Part shown: piece by piece, positions 2,559-38,567 of the stretch
Layout: every line of letters begins with the position of its first letter
How positions within the stretch are numbered: position 1 is the stretch's first letter
NCBI GenBank assembly: GCA_003507445.1
Contig: DNVR01000019.1
Location: 206,132-270,131 of the forward strand
Source of the DNA: Candidatus Moraniibacteriota bacterium
GTDB taxonomy: Bacteria; Patescibacteriota; Minisyncoccia; Moranbacterales; GWC2-37-73
DNA: 64,000 nucleotides
Direction: 5' to 3'
The notes under the pieces: model-generated
What the model saw: the letters and a program-made list of their open reading frames with translations, nothing else
Told to the model about the DNA's origin: nothing
The model's database searches: none
Translations under genes and position numbers: made by a program

Positions 2559-3293
2559 ATGTTTAAAGACAAGGTGGTTGTTGTGACTGGGGCATCAAGT
2601 GGGATTGGAGCTGAAACAGCTTTGGCTTTTGCAAAAGAAGGTGCAAATCTTGTTATTACATACAAAGATAACAAGGTGGGAGCAGAAGAAGTTGCTGCCA
2701 AAATAATCCAAGCAGGAGGCGGAGCTATTGTTGTTCAAGCTGATTTGATCAATGAGTCAGATGCTAAGAATGTTATTGAAAAGGCTAAATCAGAATATGG
2801 TAAAGTTGATATTTTAGTTAATAACGCTGGCAGATATATTGATGGCGATGAATGGAATGGGAATTCTGAAATTTGGACAAAAAGCCTTTTGCAAAATCTT
2901 GTTTCAGTGATGAGTGTCTCAAAATATGCAATCGAAATTTTTCAGCAGCAAAAATCAGGAGTAATTGTGAACATTTCGTCGCGATATTCAACAGACGGAC
3001 AATATGATGCATTGGCTTATGCGGCGGCAAAAGCTGGCGTGGTAAACATAACTCAAGCATATGCAAAATTACTCGCACCATTTGGAAGGGCTAATGCAAT
3101 TTCTCCTGGAGCAGTTAATACTGGCTATTGGCTGCGAGCGCCGAAAGAAGAATTGGAAAAAAATTTGGCCGCAATCCCATCTGGAAAACTGGTTGAGCCG
3201 AAAGAAGTTGCTGAAAAAGTTTTATTCTTAGCTTCAGACGAATCTTCAAATATAAATGGGCAAAATATTTTTATAAATAATATTATAAAATAA
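2559..3293 (+). CDS. SDR-family oxidoreductase (3-oxoacyl-ACP reductase-like)
   Basis: 244 aa; TGASSGIG Rossmann motif, NNAG, YxxxK (YAAAK) catalytic motif. Confidence 0.8.
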   Translation: MFKDKVVVVTGASSGIGAETALAFAKEGANLVITYKDNKVGAEEVAAKIIQAGGGAIVVQADLINESDAKNVIEKAKSEYGKVDILVNNAGRYIDGDEWNGNSEIWTKSLLQNLVSVMSVSKYAIEIFQQQKSGVIVNISSRYSTDGQYDALAYAAAKAGVVNITQAYAKLLAPFGRANAISPGAVNTGYWLRAPKEELEKNLAAIPSGKLVEPKEVAEKVLFLASDESSNINGQNIFINNIIK

Positions 3294-3297
3294 AATT

Positions 3298-3615
3298 ATG
3301 ACAAATGAATTTCAAGAAAAAGTCAAAATGTTCATGGATGAAAATAAGATGAATAATCCTATTGAAAATAGGGTTCTTGATTTGTTTGATGAAGTTGGTG
3401 AAGTTGCAAAAGAAGTTAATAAAATGTCCAGCTATGGTACAAAAAAGCCTGAATTTAGAGAAGAAATAATAATGGAGCTTGGTGATGCTTTTTATTCACT
3501 GATAACAGTTGCCAATTATTATGATGTGGATTTATTGAATTCTCTTTCCATGGCTGTTGAAAAATATGAAAAACGAATCAAGAAAGGCGGTCATGCGGGA
3601 TCGGAAAATGATTAA
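3298..3615 (+). CDS. MazG-like nucleotide pyrophosphohydrolase domain protein
   Basis: 105 aa all-alpha; EVGEVAKEV / ELGDAFYSL helix motifs typical of the MazG NTP-PPase family. Confidence 0.55.
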   Translation: MTNEFQEKVKMFMDENKMNNPIENRVLDLFDEVGEVAKEVNKMSSYGTKKPEFREEIIMELGDAFYSLITVANYYDVDLLNSLSMAVEKYEKRIKKGGHAGSEND

Positions 3616-3635
3616 TTTTGAAATTTTAAACTTAT

Positions 3636-4100
3636 ATGTATAATCACGCACCGGAAAATTACAATTGCCCGATATGCTTGGGCGTCAATGGAATTGAGAG
3701 TGATGCAACAATGCTAAAACAGGCAGACATTGTTTATAAGGATGATTTAGTTTGTGCTTTTGTAAATTCAAAATTTGTTGGAAATAATCCTGGTCATGTA
3801 ATTGTTGTCCCAAATGAACATTTTGAAAATTTGTATGATATGCCGGAAGATGTTTTGAGTAGAGCAATTTCTGTGTCTAAGAAAATTGCAATTGCAATGA
3901 AAAAAGCTCGCAATTGTGATGGTGTGATGATTCAACAGAATAACGAGCCAGCAAGCAATCAACACGCTTTTCACTATCACATGCACGTTTTCCCTAGATT
4001 CGATGGCGACGAAATTTATCAGCACATGAACAGCGCGCGAGTTTCAGATCCACAAGAAAGAATCGCTTATGCAGAAGAATTAAAAAAGTATTTAAACTAA
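3636..4100 (+). CDS. HIT-family hydrolase
   Basis: 154 aa; histidine triad HYHMHVFPR, N-terminal CxxC. Confidence 0.8.
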   Translation: MYNHAPENYNCPICLGVNGIESDATMLKQADIVYKDDLVCAFVNSKFVGNNPGHVIVVPNEHFENLYDMPEDVLSRAISVSKKIAIAMKKARNCDGVMIQQNNEPASNQHAFHYHMHVFPRFDGDEIYQHMNSARVSDPQERIAYAEELKKYLN

Positions 4101-4110
4101 GAATAAAACT

Positions 4111-4659
4111 ATGAAAATTTTCATCGTCAGACATGGAGAAACAGATTCAAACAAAAATAAGAAACTCATGGGGCAGAGAATGAATGACCCATTGAATGCC
4201 GAGGGCATTGAACAGATCAAAAAGCTTTCCGAAGAAATTGACACAGATTTTGATGTTATTTTTACCTCGCCATTAGTGCGAGCAAAACAATCTGCACAAA
4301 TTCTCGCTGCAAAAATTGGTGCTCCTGTTGTTGAAAAGCAGGAGATTATGGAACGAGATTTTGGTGATTTTTCAGGTAAAACCTGGGATGAGATGATTAA
4401 AAAACTTGGAGAAGCGGCGAGTGATTTGAAAAAAGAAGATTTTGAACAAAATTATGATTATCGTCCTTATGGCGGAGAATGTGCGGCAGATGTTAAGGGA
4501 AGGTTTTTGAAATTTGTTGAAGAATTAAAAAAAGACTATGCAGACAAGAAAGTTTTAATTGTTGCTCATGGTGGAATATTGAAATTGGCACACTTTCTAT
4601 TTTCTGAAATAAGAGTTGAACATGTGCAAAATGCTGCAATTTGCGAATTTGATATTTAG
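4111..4659 (+). CDS. histidine phosphatase family protein (phosphoglycerate mutase-like)
   Basis: 182 aa; RHGETDSN catalytic motif at N-terminus, second His in VAHGG. Confidence 0.75.
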   Translation: MKIFIVRHGETDSNKNKKLMGQRMNDPLNAEGIEQIKKLSEEIDTDFDVIFTSPLVRAKQSAQILAAKIGAPVVEKQEIMERDFGDFSGKTWDEMIKKLGEAASDLKKEDFEQNYDYRPYGGECAADVKGRFLKFVEELKKDYADKKVLIVAHGGILKLAHFLFSEIRVEHVQNAAICEFDI

Positions 4660-4684: not shown

Positions 4685-4882
4685 ATGACAAGTGAAAATG
4701 AAAATATTTTTGTGGAAGACATAATTGCAGAGGCGGAAAAGTCTTCCGGTGATATTCAAGATGGTGTGGTAGATAAACTTCAGTCTTTATTGAAAGATGA
4801 ATTTTGTTCAGAAGAATCAAGCAATGCAACTATCACACAAATTGCAAAGAATCTTATTGAAGAGCAAGTTAAAGAACTATAA
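4685..4882 (+). CDS. small acidic hypothetical protein, upstream partner of Rad50-like ATPase
   Basis: 65-aa ORF (inner ATG of 4616..4882 ORF, past the overlap with the upstream gene); stop 4 nt before the ATPase ATG at 4887; no SD seen. Confidence 0.35.
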   Translation: MTSENENIFVEDIIAEAEKSSGDIQDGVVDKLQSLLKDEFCSEESSNATITQIAKNLIEEQVKEL

Positions 4883-4886
4883 AAGA

Positions 4887-7223
4887 ATGAAAATCAATAA
4901 AATTAAAATTGCATGGTTTCGTGGAGCATCTGATCCTGTCGAAATGGAACTGAATTCCAAATCACTTGTTATTTATGGCGAAAATGGAGCAGGGAAATCA
5001 TCATTTGTTGATTCGATCGAATATATAATAAACAACGGCAGAATAACACACCTTGCGCATGAACATAGTGGACGAAGGCAAGAAAAAGCTATTGTAAATA
5101 CTCATACACCTGGCAGTCAAAAAGGAGAAATAAAAGTTACGTTAGATGATAATTCTGAAGTCTTGGTTGAAATACAGCGCAATGGCGCTTTTTCTATTTC
5201 ACCAGATAACTCAGAAATATCAAAATGGAATTATCGTCGAACAGTTCTCAGACAAAATGAACTTGCTGATTTTATCGCTCATACAAAAGGCGATAAATAT
5301 TCTGCATTGTTGCCCTTGCTTGGATTGAGCTACTTGGAAGTTGCAGCAGAAAATCTTAGAAAATTAGAAAATTCGATTCAATCGCAAACTAGTCTTTTAG
5401 TGAAGAGGGAGGAAATTAGAAAAATAGAAGAAAAGAGACGGCTAGCTTTTGGAGATTTAGATAGAGCTGGTATTGAAAAGGAGGCAAAAGTTTTATTTAA
5501 AAAATACTGCAGTGAAAAAGAGGTTCCAGAAGATATCGATGATGTTGTTCTGGAAGCAAGTTCATCTCTGAATGTATTAATTGGAAAATTAGCAGATGAT
5601 CAAAAAAAATATACTACTCAATTAGAAATTTCTAGCTTTGAAATAAAAAAGCAAGTGGAGGACATTAGAATTAGTGCCTCTAAACTTGCAGAATACACAG
5701 TCCCTTTGATTATCGAAAAGCTTAATGTCTTAAAAACAGCTTCTGTGTTTGTTAAAAAAATAGAAGGGGAATCATTGATTGACTGTCCTGCATGTGGGCA
5801 ATCCATCTCTCCATCCGACTTCTCGTCCCATGTTGAAACAGAAGAATTGAGATTAAAGGAGGCTTCTGAAAATTTGGAATTGCATAAGTCCAACATAGGA
5901 AAACTTTGTGATAATTTGCAAAATTTAAAAAGGGCATGTGCTAAGGATGAGGTAAAAGATTGGAAGGATAAATGTAGTCATATCTATATTGATTATGTTG
6001 AGTCCCTTAATATTGATAATGTTCGTTTCGCTTGCACGGAAGAAATTCTTGCGGAAATTGATGAAAAAATAATTCCAATTTTGGAATCTGCAAAATTAGC
6101 CAGCGGAACAGTTCCTTCTGAGGTGAGGGAATTACTAACTGATCAAGAAAAATTAAAAACTATTAATGAAATTATTAAAGGGGACGCATTGAGGAAGTAT
6201 GTTTTAAAAATAGAAAATCTTGCTAAATTTATAAATTCTATTCAAAAGATATATAGAGAGCGGATCCGTTCGCAGTCATCGGCTGTTATTGCTGTTATTT
6301 CTGCAGATATTGCAAGAATGTGGGGTATTCTGCATCCTAATGAGAAGATTGAAAATGTTCATTTATATTTTCCAGAAAATGTGGATAAGGCTATCGAGAT
6401 TGGATTAAAGTTTTATGGTGTAGATCAGGAATCCCCGCGTTTAACTTTATCAGAAGGACACAGAAATAGTCTTGGTTTGTGCATTTTTCTATCAATGGTA
6501 AAGCGTGATATAAGTGCTGATTGTCCTGTTTTTCTTGATGATGTTGTTGTAAGTTTTGACCGTAATCATCGTGGAATGGTTGCGAACTTACTTGAAAGTG
6601 AATTTGATGGTAAGCAAATTATTCTTCTGACACATGATCGCGAGTGGTATATAGAATTAAAACATCAATTGTCAGCTCAAAATTGGGAGTTTAAGGCGCT
6701 GATGCCATGGGAAAGTCCTGATATTGGAATAAGATTTTCCTCAAAGCAGTATGCATTTGATGATGCTAGATTTTTTCTAAGTGGAAATCCAGATTCAGCT
6801 GGCAATACTGCACGCAAGATAATGGACACTCAAATTGCTATATTGAGCGAGCCTCTAAAAATTAGTCTTCCATATTTACATCGCGAACGAAATGATCACA
6901 GAACTGCTCATGATTTTCTTCCGAAGATTATTGCTCTTAGTCCAACGTCATTTTATATCAAAGAAGACGGGGTAAATTATATACCTTTTATAGCAGCGAT
7001 AGATGTTTTTAAAAAGGCAGATCGCCTTATTTTGGCTTGGGCAAATCGGGCATCGCATAGTTTTGATTTAGCTCAAAATGAAGCTACTGAACTTATAGAC
7101 ACTTGCGAAAGTGCATTATCTCAATTCGTTTGTTCTAATTGTGGAAAGGATGTTACGCGTCTTGATGATAAAAGTGCAAAATTTCTTCAATGTGCATGTG
7201 GAAATTTAAAATGGAAATATTAA
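4887..7223 (+). CDS. Rad50/SMC/RloC-like ABC ATPase with coiled-coil CxxC hook-like motif and C-terminal zinc ribbon (candidate defense ATPase)
   Basis: start taken at MKINKIKIAWF (ATG 4887) after the upstream stop; Walker A GENGAGKSS; long coiled-coil insert containing CPACGQS; signature-like LSEGHRNSLGL; Walker B/D-loop VFLDDVVVSFD; H-loop LLTHDREW; ~200-aa C-terminal extension ending CSNCGK...CACGN. Confidence 0.7.
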   Translation: MKINKIKIAWFRGASDPVEMELNSKSLVIYGENGAGKSSFVDSIEYIINNGRITHLAHEHSGRRQEKAIVNTHTPGSQKGEIKVTLDDNSEVLVEIQRNGAFSISPDNSEISKWNYRRTVLRQNELADFIAHTKGDKYSALLPLLGLSYLEVAAENLRKLENSIQSQTSLLVKREEIRKIEEKRRLAFGDLDRAGIEKEAKVLFKKYCSEKEVPEDIDDVVLEASSSLNVLIGKLADDQKKYTTQLEISSFEIKKQVEDIRISASKLAEYTVPLIIEKLNVLKTASVFVKKIEGESLIDCPACGQSISPSDFSSHVETEELRLKEASENLELHKSNIGKLCDNLQNLKRACAKDEVKDWKDKCSHIYIDYVESLNIDNVRFACTEEILAEIDEKIIPILESAKLASGTVPSEVRELLTDQEKLKTINEIIKGDALRKYVLKIENLAKFINSIQKIYRERIRSQSSAVIAVISADIARMWGILHPNEKIENVHLYFPENVDKAIEIGLKFYGVDQESPRLTLSEGHRNSLGLCIFLSMVKRDISADCPVFLDDVVVSFDRNHRGMVANLLESEFDGKQIILLTHDREWYIELKHQLSAQNWEFKALMPWESPDIGIRFSSKQYAFDDARFFLSGNPDSAGNTARKIMDTQIAILSEPLKISLPYLHRERNDHRTAHDFLPKIIALSPTSFYIKEDGVNYIPFIAAIDVFKKADRLILAWANRASHSFDLAQNEATELIDTCESALSQFVCSNCGKDVTRLDDKSAKFLQCACGNLKWKY

Positions 7224-7396: not shown

Positions 7397-8059
7397 ATGA
7401 ACAAACAAGAAATTATAAACAATACTGCAAAATATGCACGTGAAACGCTAGAGGGTGAAACTTCTGGTCACGACTGGTGGCACGTCTATCGTGTTTGGAA
7501 GATGGCACAGAACATAGGACAAAAAGAAAACGCCGACATGTTTGTGGTTGAACTGGCTGCACTTCTTCATGACATTGCTGATTATAAAATGCATAGTGGT
7601 GACGACACGGTCGGGTCAGGGGTTGCAAGAGAGTGGCTCGAAAAGCAAGGAGTTGATGATGAAACTATTTTCCATGTTTGTGAAATTATAAAAGAAGCAT
7701 CATTTAAGGGTGAAAAAGTTGAATCAAAAATAAATACTGTTGAGGGAAAAGTTGTGCAAGACGCAGATCGCTTGGATGCTATCGGCGCGATTGGTATAGC
7801 TAGAGGATTCATGTTTGCGGGAAATAAAAGTTTACCCATGTATGATCCAGATATAAAACCATTGGAGATACATGACTTCGAGGTATATAAAAATATAAAA
7901 AGACCAACATACACACAAATAAATCATTTCTATGAAAAACTTTTACTGCTCAAGGATTTGATGAATACTGAAAGTGGAAAAGAAATTGCACAGGGTAGGC
8001 ATGTGATCATGGAGAACTATTTGAAAGATTTTTTTAATGAGTGGGAGGGCAAGGCTTAA
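7397..8059 (+). CDS. HD-domain phosphohydrolase
   Basis: 220 aa; H...HD motif (AALLHDIADYK), downstream D (VQDADRLDAIG). Confidence 0.75.
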   Translation: MNKQEIINNTAKYARETLEGETSGHDWWHVYRVWKMAQNIGQKENADMFVVELAALLHDIADYKMHSGDDTVGSGVAREWLEKQGVDDETIFHVCEIIKEASFKGEKVESKINTVEGKVVQDADRLDAIGAIGIARGFMFAGNKSLPMYDPDIKPLEIHDFEVYKNIKRPTYTQINHFYEKLLLLKDLMNTESGKEIAQGRHVIMENYLKDFFNEWEGKA

Positions 8060-8071
8060 ATTTGCTTTTCC

Positions 8072-8160
8072 AAAGCCATTGCGCGGTTCAATCTGCTCTC
8101 AACCGACTCCCAATTTTCAAGGATATTAGTTCGAAGCGTGTACCCTAGCCCGTGCATAGA
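8072..8160. repeat. island-boundary conserved block, copy A
   Basis: AAAGCCATTGCGCGGTTCAATCTGCTCTCAAC...CCCAATTTTC...GTTCGAAGCGTGTACCCTAGC; 4 copies (8072, 9472, 10731, 11909); followed by terminator-like hairpin 8176-8205 and TTGACA box (12-nt spacer to TATGCT) 8235-8262. Confidence 0.7.
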
Positions 8161-8351
8161 TGAAGCAAGGCTCAAGTGAGCCTTGTTTTTGATAGGGGAA
8201 AATACATCTTCGAACCGAAATCTAAAAAATATTGACATTTTCCTTCGAATATGCTAAAAAGATAAGTCCACTGTGGACGAGATTTATGAATAAATCTTCA
8301 GTTCTTCGCAGTATAAATAATGGTCGAGGGACCTAAACCCAGGAGGCAAAA

Positions 8352-8918
8352 ATGGGCATAATTGATGACATTAAAGCATGGATGGGTAAACATCGGATTT
8401 TCGCAACTCTTGTTGTTCTGACACTGGTTGTCGTCCTTGGCGGCGGAACCTTCCGGGTCCTGTTTTGTACCTTTGTAGACAAGCACGAAACATGCTTCAT
8501 CTACGACAGAATTTCCGGTCAGGTAGAAATTCCGGATCGAACAGGCTACATCGTCCGCGCGCCAATCATTTATTCGGTGCACACGCTTGATACGCGTCCG
8601 TACCAGCTTTCTATCACTGCCAACATTGGGTCTCCTGGTACGTCTAGCGTTTCTTCGCGGGTTCTTAATGCCAAGCTGGTCAGGTTTAATCCCAAGGGCA
8701 TATCAACATTCATTTCCTGGCATGGACGTGACGCCGGCGACAAATTGGCAAATTTGCTGGAAATCATGAAGTGTTATGCCTTCGACAAAGAGGGAGGAAG
8801 GGATTGCCCGTTCATAACAGTTCTTAATGAAATCAATCCCAGTCAAACCCCCTCCCAGCTGGGGGATACCACTGCTTCCTCGATTACACCCAGTGTTCAT
8901 ACTGGAGCAAAGCCATGA
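8352..8918 (+). CDS. hypothetical membrane-anchored protein, paralog 1 (higher GC, ~50%)
   Basis: 188 aa; N-terminal TM helix; shares DTRP...LNAKLVRFN / KCYAFDKEGGRDCPFITVLNE blocks with downstream paralog; weak resemblance to SPFH N-terminal region. Confidence 0.5.
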   Translation: MGIIDDIKAWMGKHRIFATLVVLTLVVVLGGGTFRVLFCTFVDKHETCFIYDRISGQVEIPDRTGYIVRAPIIYSVHTLDTRPYQLSITANIGSPGTSSVSSRVLNAKLVRFNPKGISTFISWHGRDAGDKLANLLEIMKCYAFDKEGGRDCPFITVLNEINPSQTPSQLGDTTASSITPSVHTGAKP

Positions 8919-9394
8919 AGGGACTCGACGATATTCTGACGAAACATCGACTGAGGATACCAGTCATTATCTCAAGTGTCATATTCATCGTTGCACTCTT
9001 CTTCTATCTCTGTTTTCTAAACTATAATGAACCGACGGAGATTGGAATAGCTAGAAACGTGTTCTCTGGAGAAGCATGGTCACAGGAAGGTGGGGGTTGG
9101 CATCGTACGGCGCCGTGGGTGTTTGTGTCTAAGATCGACACGAGACCTATGAAAGTTGGTGTGACGACTTCCGGACACGGATTCAGTGCTAAACTTGTGC
9201 AGTTCAACACCAGGGAATGGCAGGAGTTCATCATGACAGAGGGCTTCCGCTACTGGTGGTGGGACAATCGCATCTCTTTCAACTTCGGATACAGTGAAGA
9301 ATATCGCGGGATGAAGGACATTCTGCGCGGCTACGCTTACAGCGTGAAACGCTACCCCTTCATAACAATACTGGAAGAGTATCAGACACAATAA
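8915..9394 (+). CDS. hypothetical membrane-anchored protein, paralog 2
   Basis: 159 aa; ATGA start/stop overlap with upstream gene; N-terminal TM; DTRP...SAKLVQFN / RGYAYSVKRYPFITILEE blocks paralogous to 8352 gene. Confidence 0.5.
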   Translation: MKGLDDILTKHRLRIPVIISSVIFIVALFFYLCFLNYNEPTEIGIARNVFSGEAWSQEGGGWHRTAPWVFVSKIDTRPMKVGVTTSGHGFSAKLVQFNTREWQEFIMTEGFRYWWWDNRISFNFGYSEEYRGMKDILRGYAYSVKRYPFITILEEYQTQ

Positions 9395-9471
9395 CAACAT
9401 CTTGAAAATGCAGGATTATACTGGCATGTTCATCTCACACGAGAAGAATGTGTCAGTTTTTTTATTTCATT

Positions 9472-9565
9472 AAAGTCATTACTTGCTCCAATCTTGTCTC
9501 AACAACATACCAATTTTTAAGTATATTAGTTCGAAGTGCGTACTTTAGCCCGTACAGACTAAAAT
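9472..9565. repeat. island-boundary conserved block, copy B
   Basis: AAAGTCATTACTTGCTCCAATCTTGTCTCAACAACATACCAATTTTT...GTTCGAAGTGCGTACTTTAGC; then hairpin/T-run 9565-9592. Confidence 0.7.
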
Positions 9566-9736
9566 AAGTCTTTACAGAGCCTTATTTTTTGTATAGAGAG
9601 ATTGGAATTATAACTGTGATATAATATTAATATAAATTTATCTTTAATAAGATAAACAAAAAATCGCGTGATACATTTTTGAAATTTTTGACGCAAATTA
9701 GGTTGAGCTGGTATAACAATTTTTAGAAATAAAAAT

Positions 9737-10699
9737 ATGGCAAAGAGATTATTTGAGTCGGTAGGTAATGACGTTTCCGCTATTACTAAGGGATCACAAC
9801 CGGAAGAAATAAAAAAAATTACAAAAGAAGCGGGGGAAGATTCTAGGAAATTATTATTTGAGGAGATGGAATCTGATATTGAAAAAATTGCTCCCAGTCT
9901 CGTTGATATTTGCGAAAAAGTATTAGAAGAAAAACCAGATATAATAATTTTTCTTGATAAGAGCGCACGTATTTTTGCGGGTCCAATTAAAAAGTACCTT
10001 GGAGATTCAACTGAAGGCAAAAAAGATGTTTTGCCGAAATTTTATTTTTATAATAATGATACAATTAACCAAGAAATTACCAAATATAGAGGTGGAGTTT
10101 TTTGTGCTCAGGTTGATTTAGATCTGGAAAAGAAAATTGCCGATGAATTCAAAATATTGACAGGAAAGAAAATTTTTATAGTTGATGAAAATTATTCCTC
10201 TGGAAAGGTTTTACGTATGTGGATAGAAGTTAATAATGTGCTTAATGGTCTTGATCCGGAAACACAAATTCATTTCTTTGCTTTAACAAGAGATGAACAA
10301 GAAAGAGAGTATAAAGAGAGAGTTAAATTTTTTAAAAATGAAACATTAGAAAAGGCTGTTGCTGAGCCAAATTTTAAGTTTACAATTTATGACGCCGTAA
10401 AAACAAATGTTTTTTCTAAATCTGATCATTTTCAATATGTTCAAGATCGTGACTTAAACGGTAGTGTTATATCTGAAGGAATTAACAATTCTTTGAAAAG
10501 AAGCAAAATTGGTATAAATTCTCCCTTGGATTTGTCTAGTGCGAAGACAGATGATACACATCACACAAGGACAGGTACGTATGAAGAACGTGAAGAAGCA
10601 AATACTCGTATATTTGAAGCTGTAAAAATAGCGAAACAACGAACCTATGAAAAGATGAAGGAATTTTCAAATAATAAAAAAAATATTATTGGCACCTAA
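9737..10699 (+). CDS. hypothetical protein with phosphoribosyltransferase-like fold motifs
   Basis: 320 aa; IIIFLDKSARIFAGPI and KIFIVDENYSSGKVL resemble type I PRTase PRPP-binding loop; low GC unlike neighbours. Confidence 0.4.
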   Translation: MAKRLFESVGNDVSAITKGSQPEEIKKITKEAGEDSRKLLFEEMESDIEKIAPSLVDICEKVLEEKPDIIIFLDKSARIFAGPIKKYLGDSTEGKKDVLPKFYFYNNDTINQEITKYRGGVFCAQVDLDLEKKIADEFKILTGKKIFIVDENYSSGKVLRMWIEVNNVLNGLDPETQIHFFALTRDEQEREYKERVKFFKNETLEKAVAEPNFKFTIYDAVKTNVFSKSDHFQYVQDRDLNGSVISEGINNSLKRSKIGINSPLDLSSAKTDDTHHTRTGTYEEREEANTRIFEAVKIAKQRTYEKMKEFSNNKKNIIGT

Positions 10700-10730
10700 A
10701 TTTCTAGCAGTTGAGTATTATTGTTTTATC

Positions 10731-10808
10731 AAAGCCTTTGCTCGCTCTAATCTTGCCTCAACAACATCCCAATTTTCGATGATATCGGTACCCTAGCTTG
10801 TGCATGCT
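10731..10808. repeat. island-boundary conserved block, copy C (10-nt deletion relative to others)
   Basis: AAAGCCTTTGCTCGCTCTAATCTTGCCTCAACAACATCCCAATTTTCGATGATATCGGTACCCTAGC; followed by terminator-like hairpin 10811-10838 and TTGACA box (12-nt spacer to TATGCA) 10877-10905. Confidence 0.7.
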
Positions 10809-10984
10809 AAACAGAACTCAGTTGAACTCTGTTTTTGTATAGAGAAATGAGCCTTTGAACAAAAAATTTAATAAATATTGACATTTTGCTTTGGATATGC
10901 AAATATTTGATATTCCTTAACAATTGTAAGAAGTGTTCATTTTTTTCTGATAATATCGACTATATCAAGACAAAGGAGAATGCC

Positions 10985-11623
10985 ATGGCTGACAACAGAG
11001 AGCATGATAGAGATTTCCTTAAACACGTAGAAATAATTAAGCCACCTTTTGCTGACCTTGCGAATGTGGACAGAAATGCCGGATGCAATTCGTTTCCTGC
11101 TTGGGTCGGCGAAGCATGCGTTGGACTTATCTTTGATCCTGCAAGACTTGCTCCTGATGAAAAAAGAATCTCAATTCTTCCTGATGACTGGATACTGGCA
11201 CTCATGAGACAGGATCCCCAAGATCTTTCGAACATGGCTGCGCTTTGGATGCATTACAATGTGTTTTGGGGCGGGGGAATAAGTACTTCTATTGAAAATA
11301 TTAAAATTCTTGGAAAGGGGAGATTAATGGAGAAAGGTCAGAAATGTTATCTGCCGACAATACACATGAAAATCAGGTCTGCAGGTTCGGTAAATGCTTT
11401 CATTGACGGGGATGTCTGTGACGTCGATGAGTATGAGATTATCGAACTGATAGGTCGGCGTCTTCCTCCTCTTGAATATGAACATGCTTGCTTGCCGCTT
11501 GATACTCCACGGATGGATAGAGGTATGTCCAAGTGGGAAGTGATTCACAAGGAAGGAAATATTATAGACGAGTTTGCGGTACGTGCTCTTCAGAAAATGG
11601 ATGTTGAAATTATTTGCGTTTGA
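10985..11623 (+). CDS. hypothetical protein (mid/high GC)
   Basis: 212 aa from MADNREHD (ATG 10985) preceded by AAGGAGA RBS; the longer ORF from 10886 runs through the promoter-like repeat. Confidence 0.45.
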   Translation: MADNREHDRDFLKHVEIIKPPFADLANVDRNAGCNSFPAWVGEACVGLIFDPARLAPDEKRISILPDDWILALMRQDPQDLSNMAALWMHYNVFWGGGISTSIENIKILGKGRLMEKGQKCYLPTIHMKIRSAGSVNAFIDGDVCDVDEYEIIELIGRRLPPLEYEHACLPLDTPRMDRGMSKWEVIHKEGNIIDEFAVRALQKMDVEIICV

Positions 11624-11659
11624 TAGGATTCTTAAGTCTAGAGAGAAAAGGAGGATTTT

Positions 11660-11839
11660 ATGGACAAGGTGGAAGCGGATGTGTTGCATCCCAGTCATGT
11701 CACTCGTATTTCGGACGCATCTTCTTTTGATGAGATATGCATTAATTGTGGTGCGACCGATAATCCTCTTGGACTGAGGGGTGAAGGTATATGGGGAGAG
11801 TTGGCCAAGCCATGCTCCAAAGCTGCTAAGACGCAATAA
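11660..11839 (+). CDS. small Cys-containing hypothetical protein (59 aa)
   Basis: not in ORF track (<60 aa); strong RBS AAAGGAGGA 7 nt upstream; CINCG...PCSK; followed by canonical terminator. Confidence 0.4.
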   Translation: MDKVEADVLHPSHVTRISDASSFDEICINCGATDNPLGLRGEGIWGELAKPCSKAAKTQ

Positions 11840-11864
11840 AAAGACATAACGGCAAATGCCATGG

Positions 11865-11899
11865 AGACTCGCAAATCGAAAGATTTGCGAGTCTTTTTT
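11865..11899 (+). terminator. rho-independent terminator
   Basis: gagactcgcaaatc-gaaa-gatttgcgagtc followed by TTTTTT. Confidence 0.65.
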
Positions 11900-11908
11900 C
11901 ATTTCATT

Positions 11909-11993
11909 AAAGTTTTTGCGCGCTCCAATCTTGTCTCAACAACATCCCAATTTTCTATTATATCGGTTCGAAGCGTGTACCCTAGCTCTGTGC
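11909..11993. repeat. island-boundary conserved block, copy D
   Basis: AAAGTTTTTGCGCGCTCCAATCTTGTCTCAACAACATCCCAATTTTCTATTATATCGGTTCGAAGCGTGTACCCTAGC; followed by the ddl promoter (TATAAT at ~12036). Confidence 0.7.
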
Positions 11994-12073
11994 AGGTGAT
12001 AAGATGCATCAATGCGATGTGTTCTGTGTTTTTTGGTGGTATAATGGGGTTATAAGCATATTATATAAAACAT

Positions 12074-13416: not shown

Positions 13417-13456
13417 GTAGAAATAGTGGATTTTTTTGTATGTTTGAAGGCTTGTT

Positions 13457-14716
13457 TTATACAAAGGTCAAGGCTGTTCCGGTTTTGCCGGCGCGGCCTG
13501 TTCGTCCGATGCGGTGGATATAATCTTCATATGTTGCAGGCACATCAAAGTTGATCACGTGCGAAACATTTGGAATGTCCAGTCCGCGAGCAGCCACGTC
13601 GGTTGCCACCAAAATTTCAACGTAGTTTTCTTTGAAAAGTTTGAGTGCTTTTTGACGTTTAGCGTGAGATTTGTCTCCGTGAATTGATTGAGCCTTGAAT
13701 CCATTTTTACCCAAAATGATTGAAAGTTTTTCAGCTCCGTGTTTGGTGCGAGAAAAAATCAAAACTTTTGAGAAGTTTGCTTTGCGCAAAAGGTCTTGCA
13801 GGACTTCAATTTTGTCTTCGCCTGGTTTGACGCGCACAACATCCTGATCAATGTTAGCTGCAGTTTCTCGAGTTCGAATTGAAATTTTGATTGGGTCAAC
13901 CAAAAATTCTTGAATCAATTTTTCAATTTCAGGGGCAAGTGTTGCAGAGAAAAACAAAGTTTGTCTTTTTGGCGCAACAAGTGAAAGCAAATATCTAACG
14001 TCAGGCATAAATCCCATATCAAGCATACGGTCTGCTTCATCAAGAACCACATTTGCAAAAGTGTTGAGATGAAGATTTTTGCGTTGAATCAAATCCTTGA
14101 GTCGTCCTGGAGTTCCGATCACAACATTGTAACGTGAGCGAAGACATTCGATTTGAGTTCGAATGTTGGCACCACCAACAACCACCACTGACCCAATGCG
14201 AAGTCCAGCAGCAAAGGCGCGGAATTCTTCTTGAATCTGGATAGCAAGTTCGCGAGTTGGAACAACAACCAAAAGTTTTTCATGAGGATTTTTGATAATC
14301 TTATCAAGCATTGGAAGCAAAAATGCTCCAGTTTTTCCTGTGCCTGTGTTGGCTAGTCCAATTAAATCTTTTCCCTCAAGAATGTGGGGGATGGTTTTAT
14401 CTTGAATTGGAGTTGGGTGCTCAAAGCCACGAGCAGCAATATTTTTCTTGATTGATTCCTCTATTTTGAAATCAGCAAAAATAGTGTCTGGGACATATGC
14501 CTCAGCCTCGACGATTGGTGCCGCTTTATTAATAAATCGGCTGATATCAATATAATTTCCAGTGAAACGCTTTTTGCGACCACCTTGGTTATTGAATGAA
14601 TTTTTTTGTCCGCCTTGGAATGGCGCTCTTGAGCGCGTCGGGCGCGAACTGCCCGCTTTGAAGTTTCTGCTATGCATGTATATTTTAAACAAAACAAACT
14701 GGGAAGAAGCTTCCAA
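13457..14716 (-). CDS. DEAD-box ATP-dependent RNA helicase
   Basis: Q-motif/PTPIQ, Walker A ANTGTGKT, PTRELA, DEAD (VLDEADRML), SAT, HRIGRTGRAG; true start may be MHSRNF (14677). Confidence 0.85.
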   Translation of the reverse strand: MEASSQFVLFKIYMHSRNFKAGSSRPTRSRAPFQGGQKNSFNNQGGRKKRFTGNYIDISRFINKAAPIVEAEAYVPDTIFADFKIEESIKKNIAARGFEHPTPIQDKTIPHILEGKDLIGLANTGTGKTGAFLLPMLDKIIKNPHEKLLVVVPTRELAIQIQEEFRAFAAGLRIGSVVVVGGANIRTQIECLRSRYNVVIGTPGRLKDLIQRKNLHLNTFANVVLDEADRMLDMGFMPDVRYLLSLVAPKRQTLFFSATLAPEIEKLIQEFLVDPIKISIRTRETAANIDQDVVRVKPGEDKIEVLQDLLRKANFSKVLIFSRTKHGAEKLSIILGKNGFKAQSIHGDKSHAKRQKALKLFKENYVEILVATDVAARGLDIPNVSHVINFDVPATYEDYIHRIGRTGRAGKTGTALTFV

Positions 14717-33793: not shown

Positions 33794-34765
33794 ATGACAC
33801 AAAAAATAATACAAGATATGGCCGTCAGTTTGAATATTCATCCAATTCATCTGCGGGTTTTTATGTCGAACTTTAAAAATGTATCAGCTGAAAATATCGT
33901 ATCGGCATACAAAGAATTCAAAGATGAAAATCCAAAACCGTTTGTAAAGTGGGTTGGAGGAAAAAGGCAATTGCTCAAACAATTTAGAGAGAGAGATTTG
34001 TATCCGCCCTATGATTTTGATCCGAAAACTGCAACTTACTTTGAGCCTTTTGTCGGTGGTGGAGCAATGTTTTTTGATTTGTTACCAAAAAAAGCTGTTT
34101 TGTCTGATATGAATGCCGAATTGGTAACAACTTATAATGTTATTAAAAATGACGTTGAAGGATTAATAAAAAAATTAAAAGAATATCAAAAGAAAAATAA
34201 TAAAGAATATTTTCTCAAAGTTCGTGCGCAAGATTTTAAAAAACTTTCCGATGTTGATGTTGCTGCTCGTTTTATATATCTAAATAGAACTTGTTTCAAT
34301 GGAATGTTTCGCGTTAATGGTAGTGGTCAATTTAATGTTCCATTTGGGGATAACAAGAATCCGCTTATTTGTGATGAAGAAAATTTGCGGAAAGCTCATG
34401 ATGCAATGAAGTATACTAAAATCTTGCATCAGGACTATGGAAAAGTTTTAGAAAAAGCAAAAAAAGGAGATTTTGTTTATTTTGATCCACCTTATTGTCC
34501 GGTTAACGCAACGTCTAGTTTTACGAGTTATACCAAGGAGGGATTTCTTGAAAAACAACAAATAGAATTGAAGGATGCCTTTATGGAGCTCCACAAGAGA
34601 GGTTGCTATGTTATGCTTTCAAATTCTGATACGCCATTTATCAATGAATTATATTCTGGACTAGGCAAAAAAATAAAAATTCACACTGTTGATGCTGGGC
34701 GTTCTATTAATTCAAAGGGAACAGGAAGAGGAAAAATTAAGGAGGTTGTCGTGATAAATTATTAA
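33794..34765 (+). CDS. dam: DNA adenine methyltransferase (Dam/D12 class N6-adenine MTase)
   Basis: 323 aa; KWVGGKRQLL, EPFVGGGA, YLNRTCFNGMFRVN, catalytic DPPY (VYFDPPYCP). Confidence 0.85.
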   Translation: MTQKIIQDMAVSLNIHPIHLRVFMSNFKNVSAENIVSAYKEFKDENPKPFVKWVGGKRQLLKQFRERDLYPPYDFDPKTATYFEPFVGGGAMFFDLLPKKAVLSDMNAELVTTYNVIKNDVEGLIKKLKEYQKKNNKEYFLKVRAQDFKKLSDVDVAARFIYLNRTCFNGMFRVNGSGQFNVPFGDNKNPLICDEENLRKAHDAMKYTKILHQDYGKVLEKAKKGDFVYFDPPYCPVNATSSFTSYTKEGFLEKQQIELKDAFMELHKRGCYVMLSNSDTPFINELYSGLGKKIKIHTVDAGRSINSKGTGRGKIKEVVVINY

Positions 34766-34774
34766 AAAATAATT

Positions 34775-36481
34775 ATGGCAAATTTTACAAAAACAGAGCC
34801 TTATACATTTGCAGCCCTTTGTGATTCTTTTAAAATGTTTAAGATACCAAATTTTCAGAGACCATATAAATGGACAAATAAAAATATCCAAGAATTTTGG
34901 AGCTCAATTATTTCAAATCAGAGTCCATATTTCATTGGGAATATAGTTGCAGTAAGTGACGAAAGTCTTCTTGTTATTGATGGGCAACAGAGATTAACAA
35001 CAATTAATTTGTTGTTAATAGCCCTAAGGGATACATATTCAAATATAAAAGTAAAAAAAAGCGATAAAACTAAAGTCAGTAGAACTATTGCAAGAATAGA
35101 TAAATATCTGAAGGATGATGATCTTTCGAAATCGGTAGAGTCTGAATATAAACGATTAGAACTTGGCAAAGATATGTATCAGAAAATTTTCAACATGTTG
35201 GTTGATAACGAAATCGATAACATTGATATAAAAAAGTTAACTGATAACCAAAAACGATTAATAAACAACTATGAAATATTAAAAAAATTTATACTATCAG
35301 AAATTAAGGGATCAGAGCTGAATAGTTTGGATGGTATTTTAAACAAAGTTTTAAATTTGCAGTTTATTGTTATTGTTTGTGCAACTGAAAATGATATATA
35401 TGGTATTTTCGAAGGATTTAATTCTACAGGATTGGGCTTGTCGGTAGCAGATCTTGTAAAAAATTCTATTTTAAAAGGAAGTGCGAGAGATACAAAAATG
35501 CAATCATTAATTGAGGAATTATGGAATGAAATGGAGTTAATGTTTGATGAAACAATTGCTTCAAAATTTCCTAAATTTCTTAGGCACCAATGGATTTCAG
35601 TTTATGGCCATGTTTCTATGTCCAACCTTTATAGGGAAATAAAGTCTGAGAAGATTGATAATAAGACACCGCAGATAATTAAGGAATATGTGGAATCAGT
35701 TTTATTTGATGCTAAGATATATCTTGGGATGCTATATTGGAAACACGAAAAAAACCTGGACTTGCCAAAAGATATATTGGAAGAAATATTTAAATTCAGA
35801 TTTTTGCAAAATGACCAGGTTTATGAGGTGTTGTTGACTTATCATCGGGCATTTAAAGAAAAAAGGATAACCCAATCTTTTTTTAAAAAATTTCTTAAAC
35901 GACTCTGGATTTTTACTGTTAGAGCTAGGTTCGTATCTGTAAATCCTTCTAAATATGAAAAAATCTTTTCAACACAATGTAAAGAAATTTACGAATGCAA
36001 AAATATTGAAGAAGTTTCTGCTGAAACTGAACGTTTTTTTTCAAAATTAAAAAAACTTGTTTCATCTGATGAGCAGTTTGTTGAGAATTTTATTGCAGAT
36101 GTTAAGTATGGGAAGGATAATAAATTAATATCTCTAGCAATTTCAGACTTAATGAGTTATGATAATCCAGAAATAAGCATAAAAGAGCCAGAAATAGAAC
36201 ACATTTTACCTCAAGAACCTAAAAAATGGGGATTTGCCAAGAGTGAAGTAAAAGATTATGTTGATAAAATTGGAAATTTAACTTTATTATTTAGTGATTT
36301 TAATAAAAAAAATAGCAATGAAACCATGTCATTTAAAAAAGCTATATTTAAAAAATCAAAACTTAAGTTCAACGTTGATATAGCAGATAAATGGGGCGAT
36401 ATTTTCGTTAAAGACTTCAAGAATGCTATTGAGCGGAGAAGTATTGATATGACAAAAAGAATTGAAAAAATTTGGAAATAA
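34775..36481 (+). CDS. GmrSD-like type IV restriction enzyme (DUF262 N-terminal / DUF1524 HNH-like C-terminal)
   Basis: 568 aa; DUF262 DGQQRLTT motif, C-terminal His-Me finger EIEHILPQ...IGNLTLL. Confidence 0.8.
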   Translation: MANFTKTEPYTFAALCDSFKMFKIPNFQRPYKWTNKNIQEFWSSIISNQSPYFIGNIVAVSDESLLVIDGQQRLTTINLLLIALRDTYSNIKVKKSDKTKVSRTIARIDKYLKDDDLSKSVESEYKRLELGKDMYQKIFNMLVDNEIDNIDIKKLTDNQKRLINNYEILKKFILSEIKGSELNSLDGILNKVLNLQFIVIVCATENDIYGIFEGFNSTGLGLSVADLVKNSILKGSARDTKMQSLIEELWNEMELMFDETIASKFPKFLRHQWISVYGHVSMSNLYREIKSEKIDNKTPQIIKEYVESVLFDAKIYLGMLYWKHEKNLDLPKDILEEIFKFRFLQNDQVYEVLLTYHRAFKEKRITQSFFKKFLKRLWIFTVRARFVSVNPSKYEKIFSTQCKEIYECKNIEEVSAETERFFSKLKKLVSSDEQFVENFIADVKYGKDNKLISLAISDLMSYDNPEISIKEPEIEHILPQEPKKWGFAKSEVKDYVDKIGNLTLLFSDFNKKNSNETMSFKKAIFKKSKLKFNVDIADKWGDIFVKDFKNAIERRSIDMTKRIEKIWK

Positions 36482-37107
36482 ATTTTAAAAATATGAATAA
36501 TTACAATTTAAGATTACTTGATAACTCGGAGGTTATTAAATGGTGCTATGAGGGTGTTACGGATATTTCTTTGAAGAATACTGAAAGTGAAAAAAAATTA
36601 AAAGAATCAAAGGAGATAGAAAAAGAATGGGGCAATAGCGTTATGAATACCACAGATGGAAAGCAGTGGACAACTTTGCTTTGTCAAAATTTAGTCATGG
36701 AGGCACTTGTTAGGCTTGGTAGAAAAAATGTCAGACAAACTACTGCAAAAAAAAGTACTCTTAGGGATAAAAAATACGATCCAGATTTAGAATGTGACGA
36801 ATTTGTTTATGAGGTGAAGGGCAGAAGTTGGTCTACCCCTGGAACTGCTGGTGAAAAAATACTTGGAGTGCCCTTGAAATATGGTGAATTGCCACGTTTA
36901 TACAAAAAACCACTTCAAATAGTTTTGGTAGGATATCAGGAATATGAAGCTCGAGAAAAATTCGCTTTCGGTGATTTATTAGACAAAAATAATCAAACAA
37001 CTGAATTACGAGACAGCCTAGCTTTTTACAAGGAGCACAATATTGAATATGTTGCCTTTACAGATATTTTGAAAAAAATAGGTTTTGATTATGGCTGTTG
37101 GAATTAA
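36472..37107 (+). CDS. putative type II restriction endonuclease (PD-(D/E)xK)
   Basis: 211 aa; YDPDLECDEFVYEVKGR fits PD...ExK; immediately upstream of MTase; alternative start 36493. Confidence 0.45.
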   Translation: MEINFKNMNNYNLRLLDNSEVIKWCYEGVTDISLKNTESEKKLKESKEIEKEWGNSVMNTTDGKQWTTLLCQNLVMEALVRLGRKNVRQTTAKKSTLRDKKYDPDLECDEFVYEVKGRSWSTPGTAGEKILGVPLKYGELPRLYKKPLQIVLVGYQEYEAREKFAFGDLLDKNNQTTELRDSLAFYKEHNIEYVAFTDILKKIGFDYGCWN

Positions 37108-37122
37108 AGATGATTTAAAAAA

Positions 37123-37869
37123 ATGAAAACAAAAATAAAATTGCATCCAGATGAATTTGAAATGGAATGTACCACTGTGTGGTCATTCCCTAGGCGTGGA
37201 AACTGGGCAACACATAAATCAGATTGGCGAGGAAATTGGGCACCAGAAGTGGTGCGTAATTTAATCCTGCGTTACTCAAAGGAAAGCGATCACATTCTTG
37301 ATTGTATGATTGGCGGTGGAACAACCGCAATAGAGGCAAAAATATTAAATCGTCACATCACTTGTATTGATGTTAATGAAGAGGCACTAGAACGTACGAA
37401 AAAATCATTAGAATTTGAGGTTGAAAACAATTCCAAACAAAGAATAATGAAGTGCGACGCTCGCAATATGGCATTCATTAAAAATGAGGAAATAGATTTT
37501 GTTCTTACTCATCCACCGTATGTTGATATTATAAAGTATAGCGAAGGAAAAATTAAAGAAGATTTATCTGGCATTCATAGTCTGGATGAATTTTGTGATG
37601 AAATTGAAAAAGTTGCCAGTGAATTATTTCGCGTTTTGAAAAAAGGAAAATATTGTGCAATTTTGATGGGGGATACTAGAAGAGAAAAAATGTATCAACC
37701 GTTGGCCTTTAAGGTTATGGAACGATTTTTAAAACAAGGTTTTGTATTAAAAGAGGATATTATTAAAAAACAACATAACTGCAAAGCCACCGGCTTTTGG
37801 GTAAAACGTTCCCAAGAAAGTAATTTTCTCTTGATTATGCATGAGCATCTTTTTGTATTTCAGAAATGA
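37123..37869 (+). CDS. DNA methyltransferase (N4-C/N6-A, gamma-like motif order)
   Basis: 248 aa; motif I DCMIGGGTTAIEA precedes motif IV LTHPPY. Confidence 0.75.
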   Translation: MKTKIKLHPDEFEMECTTVWSFPRRGNWATHKSDWRGNWAPEVVRNLILRYSKESDHILDCMIGGGTTAIEAKILNRHITCIDVNEEALERTKKSLEFEVENNSKQRIMKCDARNMAFIKNEEIDFVLTHPPYVDIIKYSEGKIKEDLSGIHSLDEFCDEIEKVASELFRVLKKGKYCAILMGDTRREKMYQPLAFKVMERFLKQGFVLKEDIIKKQHNCKATGFWVKRSQESNFLLIMHEHLFVFQK

Positions 37870-37879
37870 TTTTTTTATT

Positions 37880-38305
37880 ATGAAAACAAAGAAAGAAAAA
37901 AAGTTATCAGAAGAGTTTGTGAAAAACTCTGTTATTAAATATCTCTCCTCTAACGGCTGGGGTCATTTTAAATTTGGTGGATTAAGAGAGCATGGTGTTG
38001 ATATAAAAGCAAAAAAACAAAATTATGATCGGTATTTTCTTATTGAGGCAAAAGGCGAAGGAAGTCGTAGGGAAATGAATGAAAATTATTTTGTTTATTC
38101 ATTAGGGCAAATAATAACTCGTATGACTTCTGGCGGAACAACAAGAAATTATTATGGACTTGCACTTCCGGATTCAATAGCAAAAATTGCGCTTAGGCGC
38201 ATTCCATGGCAAGTAGCAAAAAAGTTGCTGCTGTATGTTTTTTCTGTTGATTCAAAAGGACAAGTGAAACAAAATTCTTGGCAGGATATAAAAAACAAAA
38301 AATAA
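37880..38305 (+). CDS. PD-(D/E)xK nuclease-like hypothetical protein
   Basis: 141 aa from MKTKKEKK; HGVDIKAK...YFLIEAKGEG fits D...ExK core. Confidence 0.4.
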   Translation: MKTKKEKKLSEEFVKNSVIKYLSSNGWGHFKFGGLREHGVDIKAKKQNYDRYFLIEAKGEGSRREMNENYFVYSLGQIITRMTSGGTTRNYYGLALPDSIAKIALRRIPWQVAKKLLLYVFSVDSKGQVKQNSWQDIKNKK

Positions 38306-38308
38306 TTT

Positions 38309-38330
38309 GCTACGTAACATGCTACGTAAC
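38309..38330. repeat. tandem TACGTA palindrome element (gctacgtaac-at-gctacgtaac)
   Basis: same family; 60 nt upstream of AbrB-like gene. Confidence 0.7.
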
Positions 38331-38357
38331 AAAATAAAAAATAAAAATTAATCTAGA

Positions 38358-38378
38358 TTCCGGATTTGCTGTCCGGAA
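38358..38378. promoter_or_regulatory. candidate operator: perfect inverted repeat TTCCGGA-N7-TCCGGAA
   Basis: 13 nt upstream of the AbrB/MazE-like ORF start; typical autoregulatory operator geometry. Confidence 0.4.
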
Positions 38379-38390
38379 TGATAAAGAAGT

Positions 38391-38555
38391 ATGAAAAAGA
38401 AAGAAGAACTTGTTCGCAAAGTGACTGGAGTTGGGAAGCGAAGCCTCTCAATCGTCATCCCATCCGAAATCGTCGCCGAACTCGGGATTAAAGAACGCCA
38501 AAAAATGACCTTCAAAATCGACCGCAAGAAAATAATTATAAGTGATTGGAAATAA
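38391..38555 (+). CDS. AbrB/MazE/SpoVT-family small DNA-binding protein (antitoxin-like)
   Basis: 54 aa, not in ORF track; KRSLSIVIPSEIVAELGIKERQKMTF matches swapped-hairpin AbrB/MazE domain. Confidence 0.55.
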   Translation: MKKKEELVRKVTGVGKRSLSIVIPSEIVAELGIKERQKMTFKIDRKKIIISDWK

Positions 38556-38567
38556 TTCTATTTATAT

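Follow-up and report, generated by a model that had tools for sequence, protein, structure and literature searches.

A tandem cassette array of Candidatus Moraniibacteriota bounded by four repeats that are probably detached 3΄ ends of a large serine recombinase gene

Some integrases change their own reading frame when they integrate. In Mx8, according to a passage of PMC6070905 that cites Tojo 1996 and Magrini 1999, attP lies in the stretch that codes for the integrase IntP, and integration by a tRNA gene yields a recombinant integrase with a new 3΄ end. In the SSV-type archaeal integrases the frame spans attP as well, and integration alters the C-terminus (PMC8371274, PMC4383910). In this work we have analysed a 64-kb stretch of DNA from a Candidatus Moraniibacteriota bacterium (contig DNVR01000019.1, positions 206,132 to 270,131; the window, in what follows), in which three small cassettes are bounded by four copies, A to D, of a direct repeat of ~95 nt. 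Our results indicate that these repeats are probably the detached last ~30 codons, with the stop, of the gene of a large serine recombinase (LSR) of the candidate phyla radiation (CPR) that carries attP inside its reading frame.

Mx8 IntP and the SSV integrases would be the closest analogues of such an enzyme. Mx8 likewise leaves its former C-terminal coding piece at the opposite prophage end, but Mx8 Int is a tyrosine recombinase and the CPR enzyme an LSR, and the piece detached in CPR bacteria is only ~30 codons long and recurs in arrays of cassettes without a recombinase. The 'suicidal' SSV-type integrases are archaeal tyrosine recombinases whose gene is split and inactivated, whereas here only the extreme tail would be swapped and the catalytic domains would stay intact. 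Tandem arrays of cassettes, many of them without a recombinase of their own, are also built by the Ccr serine recombinases of the staphylococcal cassette chromosome (SCC), as in SCCmec, and SCC cassettes are bounded by direct repeats that contain the 3΄ end of a gene. The SCC repeat is, however, the 3΄ end of the host gene rlmH, which stands intact at one end of the array, while the CPR repeat would be the 3΄ end of the recombinase itself; moreover, the chromosomal target in the CPR relatives is a tRNA gene, unlike in SCC. Integrons and clusters of attC sites lacking integron-integrases (CALINs) have in common with our locus one-orientation arrays of one- or two-gene cassettes, a repeat at the cassette end that may overlap the stop codon, and no nearby integrase. 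Unlike attC, the CPR repeat is conserved in sequence and not in fold, and bears a coding signature; unlike integrons, several CPR cassettes appear to carry promoter-like sites and terminators of their own. In the Islander signature, an intact tRNA gene, with the integrase adjoining it, stands on one side of the island and a direct repeat of the tRNA 3΄ end on the other (PMC4383910), whereas the tRNA sequence shared in the CPR loci amounts to only 6–10 nt. In 2015 it was stated that no targeting of tRNA genes was known for serine recombinases (PMC4383910); our literature searches found no later description of tRNA-targeting serine recombinases, and nothing specific on CPR integrons or cassette arrays.

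A repeat search of the 64 kb recovered the four copies as 93-nt direct repeats at 8057, 9457, 10716 and 11894, with 62–83% identity, and a 29-nt consensus matched at these places only (chance expectation 0). All four are co-oriented, and their minus strand encodes the peptide ..LGYTLRT(N/D)I(L/I)ENWxxVExRLERAxxLxK, followed by a stop. Conservation starts exactly at xTG-CAC-GGG, the codons that open the peptide. The original prediction, which had read each copy as a C-terminal peptide with a stop of its own, was right on this point and in its translations; it was also right on copy C, where a deletion of 10–11 nt (11 columns in the alignment of the four copies) shifts the frame, the sequence past it reading ..DIIENWDVVEARLERAKALIKQ and a stop on the minus strand. 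The stop had been placed at the same point in each copy, but its position varies by 0–2 codons in the window and by 0–4 in relatives. In copy D one additional base at the core displaces the xTG-CAC register, and an upstream ATG leaves the open reading frame (ORF) open to 12012.

The codon-level pattern was analysed in 24 intact copies from the window and from other genomes. Mean column entropy at codon positions 1, 2 and 3 was 0.61, 0.50 and 1.11, and four-fold degenerate sites were nearly saturated while the amino acids were retained. The peptide frame contains no stops and, of all six, is the one in which amino acids are best conserved (identity 0.66, BLOSUM 3.3 per residue); the antisense frame with the same wobble positions comes a close second (0.61 and 2.6), as expected of a by-product. 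Replacements with a positive BLOSUM score made up 30% in the peptide frame and 13% in this antisense frame, those in the peptide frame being the most conservative. Variation is concentrated at third codon positions. Counts restricted to changes synonymous in just one of these two frames do not tell them apart. Rfam, searched at the gathering score and with E up to 10, gave no match at the repeats, and alifold found no conserved structure on either strand (energy about 0, z −0.8 and +0.4). Together with the conservation by codon, this shows that the sequence evolved as protein-coding DNA. No Shine–Dalgarno sequence precedes the peptide ORF, while the neighbouring genes have strong ones; the first conserved codon of xTG-CAC-GGG is ATG, TTG or GTG in 19/33 copies; and a terminator consisting of an A-run, a hairpin and a T-run lies 5–15 nt upstream of the peptide in about 29/33. 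Codon constraint with no ribosome-binding site and with a terminator just upstream fits a fragment of a longer gene. AlphaFold predicts two helices for the peptide (predicted local distance difference test, pLDDT, 82), and a Pfam search with it returned no family. A weak PDB profile match (E=0.07) to the C-terminus of Fe/Mn superoxide dismutase (NWDDVEKRLEQA) was judged to be due to chance, since the full HMMER scan described below found no such proteins.

The block is present in other genomes. A degenerate DNA pattern located it in 7 stretches of GTDB species genomes and in 16 metagenome stretches, whose named sources are mostly metagenome-assembled genomes of Parcubacteria, Patescibacteria or Moranbacteria (one is labelled Bdellovibrionales and two are unclassified), and a profile search gave 53 copies in 33 sequence sets, the window and loci L001–L032. 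The copies occur singly or in arrays of 2–5 at one locus per contig (five in L004, four in L005, three in L032). Without exception they share one orientation and run antisense to all genes next to them, the stop of the peptide often abutting or overlapping that of the convergent gene, as at A, where it overlaps the stop of an HD-domain gene (7397–8059). A contig of 558 kb contains only two copies, side by side, so the element is tied to one locus and not dispersed. About 40% of the copies are broken by indels or by small GC-rich hairpin insertions. Viral contigs gave 0 matches and later one chance match; the phage and plasmid collections gave none. Homology breakpoints between loci fall within elements in 17 of 60 internal cases, which gather at the core and the stop end, with some in the interior; the cargo genes for Fic and HD proteins recur across genomes in differing orders, and the sequence on the hairpin side is unlinked to the type of tail. 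The elements are rearrangement hot spots, and cassettes have been shuffled between genomes.

Some copies have peculiarities of their own. The GC-rich palindromic insertions (CCGCCAGCTGGCGG, CTGCCGATGAGGCAG) stand at recurrent positions (L004 1887–2014, L005 3883–4010, L006 1385–1508 and 2749–2869) and look like tiny hairpin elements within AT-rich DNA. P0018, a 183-aa ORF of the representative library, contains three tandem copies of ..FCRTEILSNWDSVELR.., apparently part of the element triplicated in tandem. In L009 (1953–2162) a truncated element without the core and the first ~30 nt follows tRNA-Leu(CAA) and a bidirectional terminator on the same strand, and the gene caller joined tRNA and element into one 67-aa 'protein' (P0005).

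Which gene may such a fragment come from? A full-length host gene with this C-terminus, as supposed in the original prediction, was found neither among 5.8 billion proteins (word-indexed search) nor among 1.84 billion representatives (full HMMER scan): both returned only ORFs of 29–104 aa and one 183-aa junk ORF. The short ORFs that end in the peptide have unrelated N-terminal ends, and no gene body stands before the peptide in any of the 53 copies. A recombinase near other copies, the second thing that had been suggested, does exist. In L031 a 542-aa protein with the Pfam domains Resolvase, Recombinase and Zn_ribbon_recom, which make it an LSR and not a tyrosine recombinase, adjoins tRNA-Trp on the peptide strand, and the repeat lies at the far end of its island. 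This island of ~11 kb carries a restriction-modification system and has the recombinase (2662–4287) and the element (13448–13556) at opposite ends, on the same strand, in the same orientation and in the same CAC-GGx frame. Core and reading frame are common to the repeat and the recombinase: the latter ends in ..KTAPSRETVSIMHG-WKELNPRQSFWRAPFYR and a stop, its M-H-G is encoded by ATG-CAC-GGG, the codons and frame that open the element, and the part past MHG is antisense tRNA-Trp read in the element's frame. With the element at the far end of the island in this same frame, excision would fuse the tail in frame to the recombinase and, if it took place at the core, would give ..SIMHG-GLDDLRTNILENWDKVEIRLERAMVLLKQN and a stop. 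L008 has the same layout, with a recombinase that runs off the locus.

The L031 recombinase has 2843 homologues, whose named sources are mostly Moranbacteria. Among the best 120 of the 2843, the C-terminus is plainly an antisense tRNA T-arm tail (..ESNL.., ..RDSNP..) in 62, stops at the core in 34, begins like the element in 4 and is of the ENW type in 2. Direct inspection showed that the recombinase frame overlaps tRNA-Trp in L038 and tRNA-Asp in L039; since these frames cross tRNA 3΄ ends, the present tails are antisense tRNA. One full-length recombinase carries a divergent form of the tail: P0058, a 567-aa protein with all three LSR domains, ends in ..NDFSLTYEGILGNWELVEAKLERTRALLAQR and a stop, matches the peptide profile at its extreme C-terminus (residues 537–565, E=6.4e-10), and has a tail that aligns to element C of the window in tblastn. 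The tails of P0058 and P0069 are divergent members of the ENW type. The related serine recombinase of L039 (10001–11634) overlaps a tRNA-Asp(GTC) and has another core (GTGCGGGGC), and many homologues have other antisense-tRNA tails; judged from these tails, repeated switches of tRNA target seem to have occurred in the family.

Remnants of the recombinase are joined in frame to orphan tails. A profile made from the final 48 residues of the recombinases, as far as MHG, matched directly upstream of the peptide, in frame, in L010 (6.7e-6), in the L020/L011 family (2e-5) and at L020_5040 (2e-3), and also beside tRNA-Trp in L002 (5.9e-8), where the recombinase body is gone. Junctions in three independent locus families read ..KTAPxRExVSxMHG-RLDDLRTNILENW.. 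in one frame; examples are KMKTATKMATVSSMHG-MLDDIRTNILEN, KPKTAPQREPVSLMHG-RLDDLRTNILEN and PSRETVSVMHG-LGYTLRTNILEN. The terminator hairpin is, in intact recombinases, part of the coding region (..K-T-A-P-S-R-E-T-V..).

The link with tRNA-Trp is seen in eight loci, where the element lies 0.5–10 kb downstream of tRNA-Trp(CCA) with the same polarity. The gene strand of the element ends in ..CCCGTGC(A) and then a terminator, as does the 3΄ end of tRNA-Trp, the identity between the two ends covering 7–10 nt in seven of the eight and 6 nt in L031. The core CCCGTGCA is identical to the tRNA-Trp 3΄ end in related genomes, and in L028 the box after the terminator also matches between element and tRNA-Trp. 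Beyond the core, similarity to tRNA-Trp is not significant by local alignment, and the tRNA covariance model gave no match with E up to 10.

We propose that the recombinase of a free, circular element would have the ending ..KTKTAPxRExVSxMHG-(LGYTL/RLDDL)RTNILENWxxVExRLERAxxLxKQ and a stop, with attP within the last ~35 codons of its gene and the recombinase 3΄ end ..ATGCACGG joined to ..CTAGATGAC..GAAAATTGG.. at the attP junction. The element would be inserted by recombination at ATGCACGGG (opposite strand, CCCGTGCAT), the core that matches the tRNA-Trp 3΄ end; the integrated recombinase would then read into antisense tRNA and gain a new tail, and the old tail, then the core, would be stranded as attR, where the island has its far end. 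The window would contain three small cassettes in tandem, from which the recombinase has been lost and which are delimited by four orphan tails, each unit consisting in order of core, recombinase 3΄ remnant with terminator hairpin, promoter, cargo gene(s) and orphan tail. The junction order in arrays, recombinase 3΄ remnant, core and tail, is what tandem insertion produces. As the cassettes of the window keep both arms and have no recombinase, they may be regarded as non-autonomous, and presumably they are moved by a recombinase acting in trans, with homologous recombination between tails in addition. Such a mechanism accounts for a coding signature without expression signals and for the exact left edge of conservation, as well as for the co-orientation of the copies, their restriction to a single locus and their frequent decay. 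We infer that the window's own array arose in this way.

Several observations weigh against this proposal. The window has no LSR gene (tblastn of 120 recombinase homologues), in line with the original prediction, which had supposed that the integrase might lie elsewhere or have been lost; neither does it have a tRNA-Trp, its only tRNA gene being a tRNA-Lys 49 kb from the array, so the array occupies another place than in other lineages. At the window's own junctions the similarity to a recombinase remnant is not significant, these remnants being too far decayed, and at junctions in general the tail's frame does not stay open for longer upstream of the core than either of the two others do, so that most recombinase 3΄ remnants (P΄) are decayed. 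Both island ends are seen in one complete island only, L031, and no recombinase with a canonical ENW tail occurs among the 1.84 billion representative proteins. LSRs normally recombine only attP with attB, so that tandem arrays need either a relaxed choice of site or later rearrangement. Lastly, a number of mosaic breakpoints are located within the tail, close to AGATT and away from the core, a sign that homologous recombination is at work too; recombination of this kind between tails probably adds to the site-specific events.

Other origins of the repeat have to be considered. It could be a complete and independently expressed mini-gene of 31–35 aa, helical in structure, that serves as the integration target, each cassette bringing a fresh copy and the surplus decaying. 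The start codons at the conserved first position of 19 copies, the coincidence between the limits of conservation and those of the ORF, the two predicted helices, and the condition of the arrays (~40% of copies degenerate, roughly two intact per array) all agree with this idea, which we nevertheless consider unlikely: the other 14 of the 33 copies have CTG, CAG, TCG or another non-start codon, the Shine–Dalgarno sequence is missing, and the terminator stands so close upstream that there is no room for a promoter. Furthermore, at several junctions the frame runs on upstream into sequence with significant similarity to recombinase C-termini, and a divergent form of the peptide is the tail of the full-length recombinase P0058. 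The core of the original prediction was that integrative elements had entered a host protein gene and that the copies are its replaced or displaced 3΄ ends, a model comparable to SCC and rlmH; co-oriented coding fragments with in-frame stops do flank variable cassettes. We hold this model to be extremely improbable, given that neither of the two very large protein collections has a full-length protein with this C-terminus, that no gene body stands at the expected end of any array (copy D of the window is followed by ddl, which lies on the opposite strand), and that a terminator precedes the fragment in nearly all copies. What stands of that prediction is that the repeats are C-terminal coding fragments and a footprint of site-specific integration; they are not replacement ends of a host gene.

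The repeat might instead be a non-coding recombination site or RNA (an attC-like site, a 3΄ untranslated region element or small RNA belonging to the gene upstream, or a miniature transposable element), its codon pattern being incidental. The layout is similar to that of an integron array, each cassette having at its 3΄ end a single repeat that often overlaps the stop codon; the repeat is transcribed as the 3΄ untranslated region of the upstream gene, ahead of the terminator; and an outer inverted repeat surrounds the terminator in 5/33 copies (z below −2). With only these five, an attC-like structure was rejected, and the lack of any Rfam match or conserved fold, the near saturation of four-fold degenerate sites with amino acids kept, the confinement of copies to one locus and the apparent promoter-like sites and terminators of several cassettes make a non-coding origin very unlikely. 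Just as improbable in our opinion is a displaced and diverged 3΄ fragment of tRNA-Trp, the classic mark of tRNA islands. The terminal CCCGTGC(A) is common to both, the repeat holds a T-loop-like GGTTCGAA, its invariant TGG codon lies about as far from the T-loop as the anticodon complement does, and L002-type copies, read by eye, match the 3΄ 23 nt of the tRNA at 15/23 positions without gaps. Local alignment to tRNA-Trp is, however, significant for the terminal core only, the tRNA covariance model found nothing, and conservation goes by codon and not by stem. At most, the first ~25 nt of the repeat mimic a tRNA half-site. A detached recombinase 3΄ end remains the origin that we favour.

The features of the array in the window are collected in Table 1. 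No further core or P΄ module was found when sought elsewhere in the 64 kb.

Table 1. Repeats, cores, P΄ modules (the modules that follow the repeats) and cassettes of the array, in positions of the window
Feature	Positions	Strand	Description
Element A	8056–8157	−	Putative orphan recombinase tail, intact, MHGLGYTLRTNILENWESVESRLNRAMALEKQI and stop; nhmmer 98.6 bits
Attachment core at A	8149–8156	+	CCCGTGCA; reverse complement is the xTG-CAC-GGG that opens the tail
P΄ module after A	8162–8262	+	Hairpin 8162–8189 and T-run (+ strand terminator), box ..GATAGGGGAAAATACATCTTCGAAC, TTGACA..TATGCT promoter-like box
Cassette 1 cargo	8352–9394	+	ORFs of 188 and 159 aa that overlap; without match in Pfam or PADLOC
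Cassette 1 own terminator hairpin	9420–9457	+	
Element B	9462–9557	−	Putative tail LYGLKYALRTNILKNWYVVETRLEQVMTLMK and stop, in frame; CTG at start position
Core at B	9549–9556		CCCGTACA
P΄ module after B	9558–9630	+	Weak hairpin and T-run, box GTATAGAGAGATTGGAATTATAAC, TGTGATATAAT extended −10
Cassette 2 cargo	9737–10699	+	320-aa protein; weak phosphoribosyltransferase match below Pfam cut-off
Element C	10718–10805	−	Putative tail, decayed; 10–11 nt deletion and frameshift
Core at C	10797–10804		CTTGTGCA
P΄ module after C	10806–10907	+	Hairpin, box GTATAGAGAAATGAGCCTTTGAAC, promoter-like TTGACA-18-AATATT (10878–10907)
Cassette 3 cargo	10985–11839	+	212-aa and 59-aa ORFs without family match
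Cassette 3 own terminator	11863–11896	+	15-bp stem
Element D	11899–11997	−	Putative tail, intact, (LMHLI)TCTELGYTLRTDIIENWDVVETRLERAKTLMK and stop, ending ..ELGYTLRTDIIENWDVVETRLERAKTLMK and stop
Junction to ddl	11998–12073	+	Weak hairpin, T-run, GGTGGTATAATGGGGTTATAAG resembling P΄-type box and promoter

Every copy is followed on the + strand by a hairpin and a T-run, weak after B and D. The promoter-like box of the module after A is common to the module after C, and the minus strand of the former reads ..FEDVFSPIKNKAHLSLASSMHG, which resembles recombinase C-terminal regions without statistical significance. The terminator-plus-box module (window 8218–8257 and 10864–10903; L001 4197–4453; L004 about 6560–6614) is shared, with 75–85% identity, by unrelated cassettes and genomes, independently of the type of the adjoining tail. 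The Pfam scan covered the ORFs near the array. The two ORFs of cassette 1 have hydrophobic N-terminal stretches and, read by eye, may be paralogous membrane proteins; the GC content of this cassette is 45%, against ~35% in the flanks, and two of the three cassettes have a GC content above that of the host.

The flanking genes are all on the + strand: an LmuB-like ATPase and the HD-domain gene upstream, and ddl downstream. The ATPase (4797–7223, +) is an 808-aa SMC-like protein that matches the Lamassu LmuB profiles of PADLOC with E=3.9e-26, and no LmuA partner was identified adjoining it. Farther away (33794–39995, +), a Dam-like methyltransferase motif (..KWVGGKRQL), recognised by eye, accompanies large ORFs without an assigned family in an accessory block that is possibly a restriction-modification island. 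The arrays of the window, L005 and L032 occupy the same chromosomal neighbourhood, from histidine phosphatase to glycyl-tRNA synthetase, with different cassettes; this neighbourhood is a conserved hot spot that does not adjoin tRNA-Trp.

What does this mean for the CPR bacteria? The conserved 'ORFan' mini-proteins called in their metagenomes would be explained as integrase tails and not as genes, and the tail plus core would provide a sequence marker for the ends of integrated islands and of cassette arrays in Patescibacteria, a group with few mobile elements mapped so far. The recombinases described here point to tRNA genes being used by serine recombinases as their targets, and the natural attP/attB pairs may be read directly in the genomes. 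As a tentative extension, which we regard as possible but rather doubtful, there may be a CPR-wide family of LSRs aimed at tRNA 3΄ ends, with attP in their own 3΄ coding end, in which integration swaps the conserved helical ENW tail for a tRNA-antisense tail, a built-in switch that would mark, and possibly control, the integrated versus the excised state, while mini-cassettes without a recombinase but with both att arms retained could, mobilised in trans, build integron-like arrays of accessory and defence genes in the reduced genomes of these bacteria. If the swap of the tail alters the activity of the enzyme, it would represent a novel means to control in which direction serine recombinases react.

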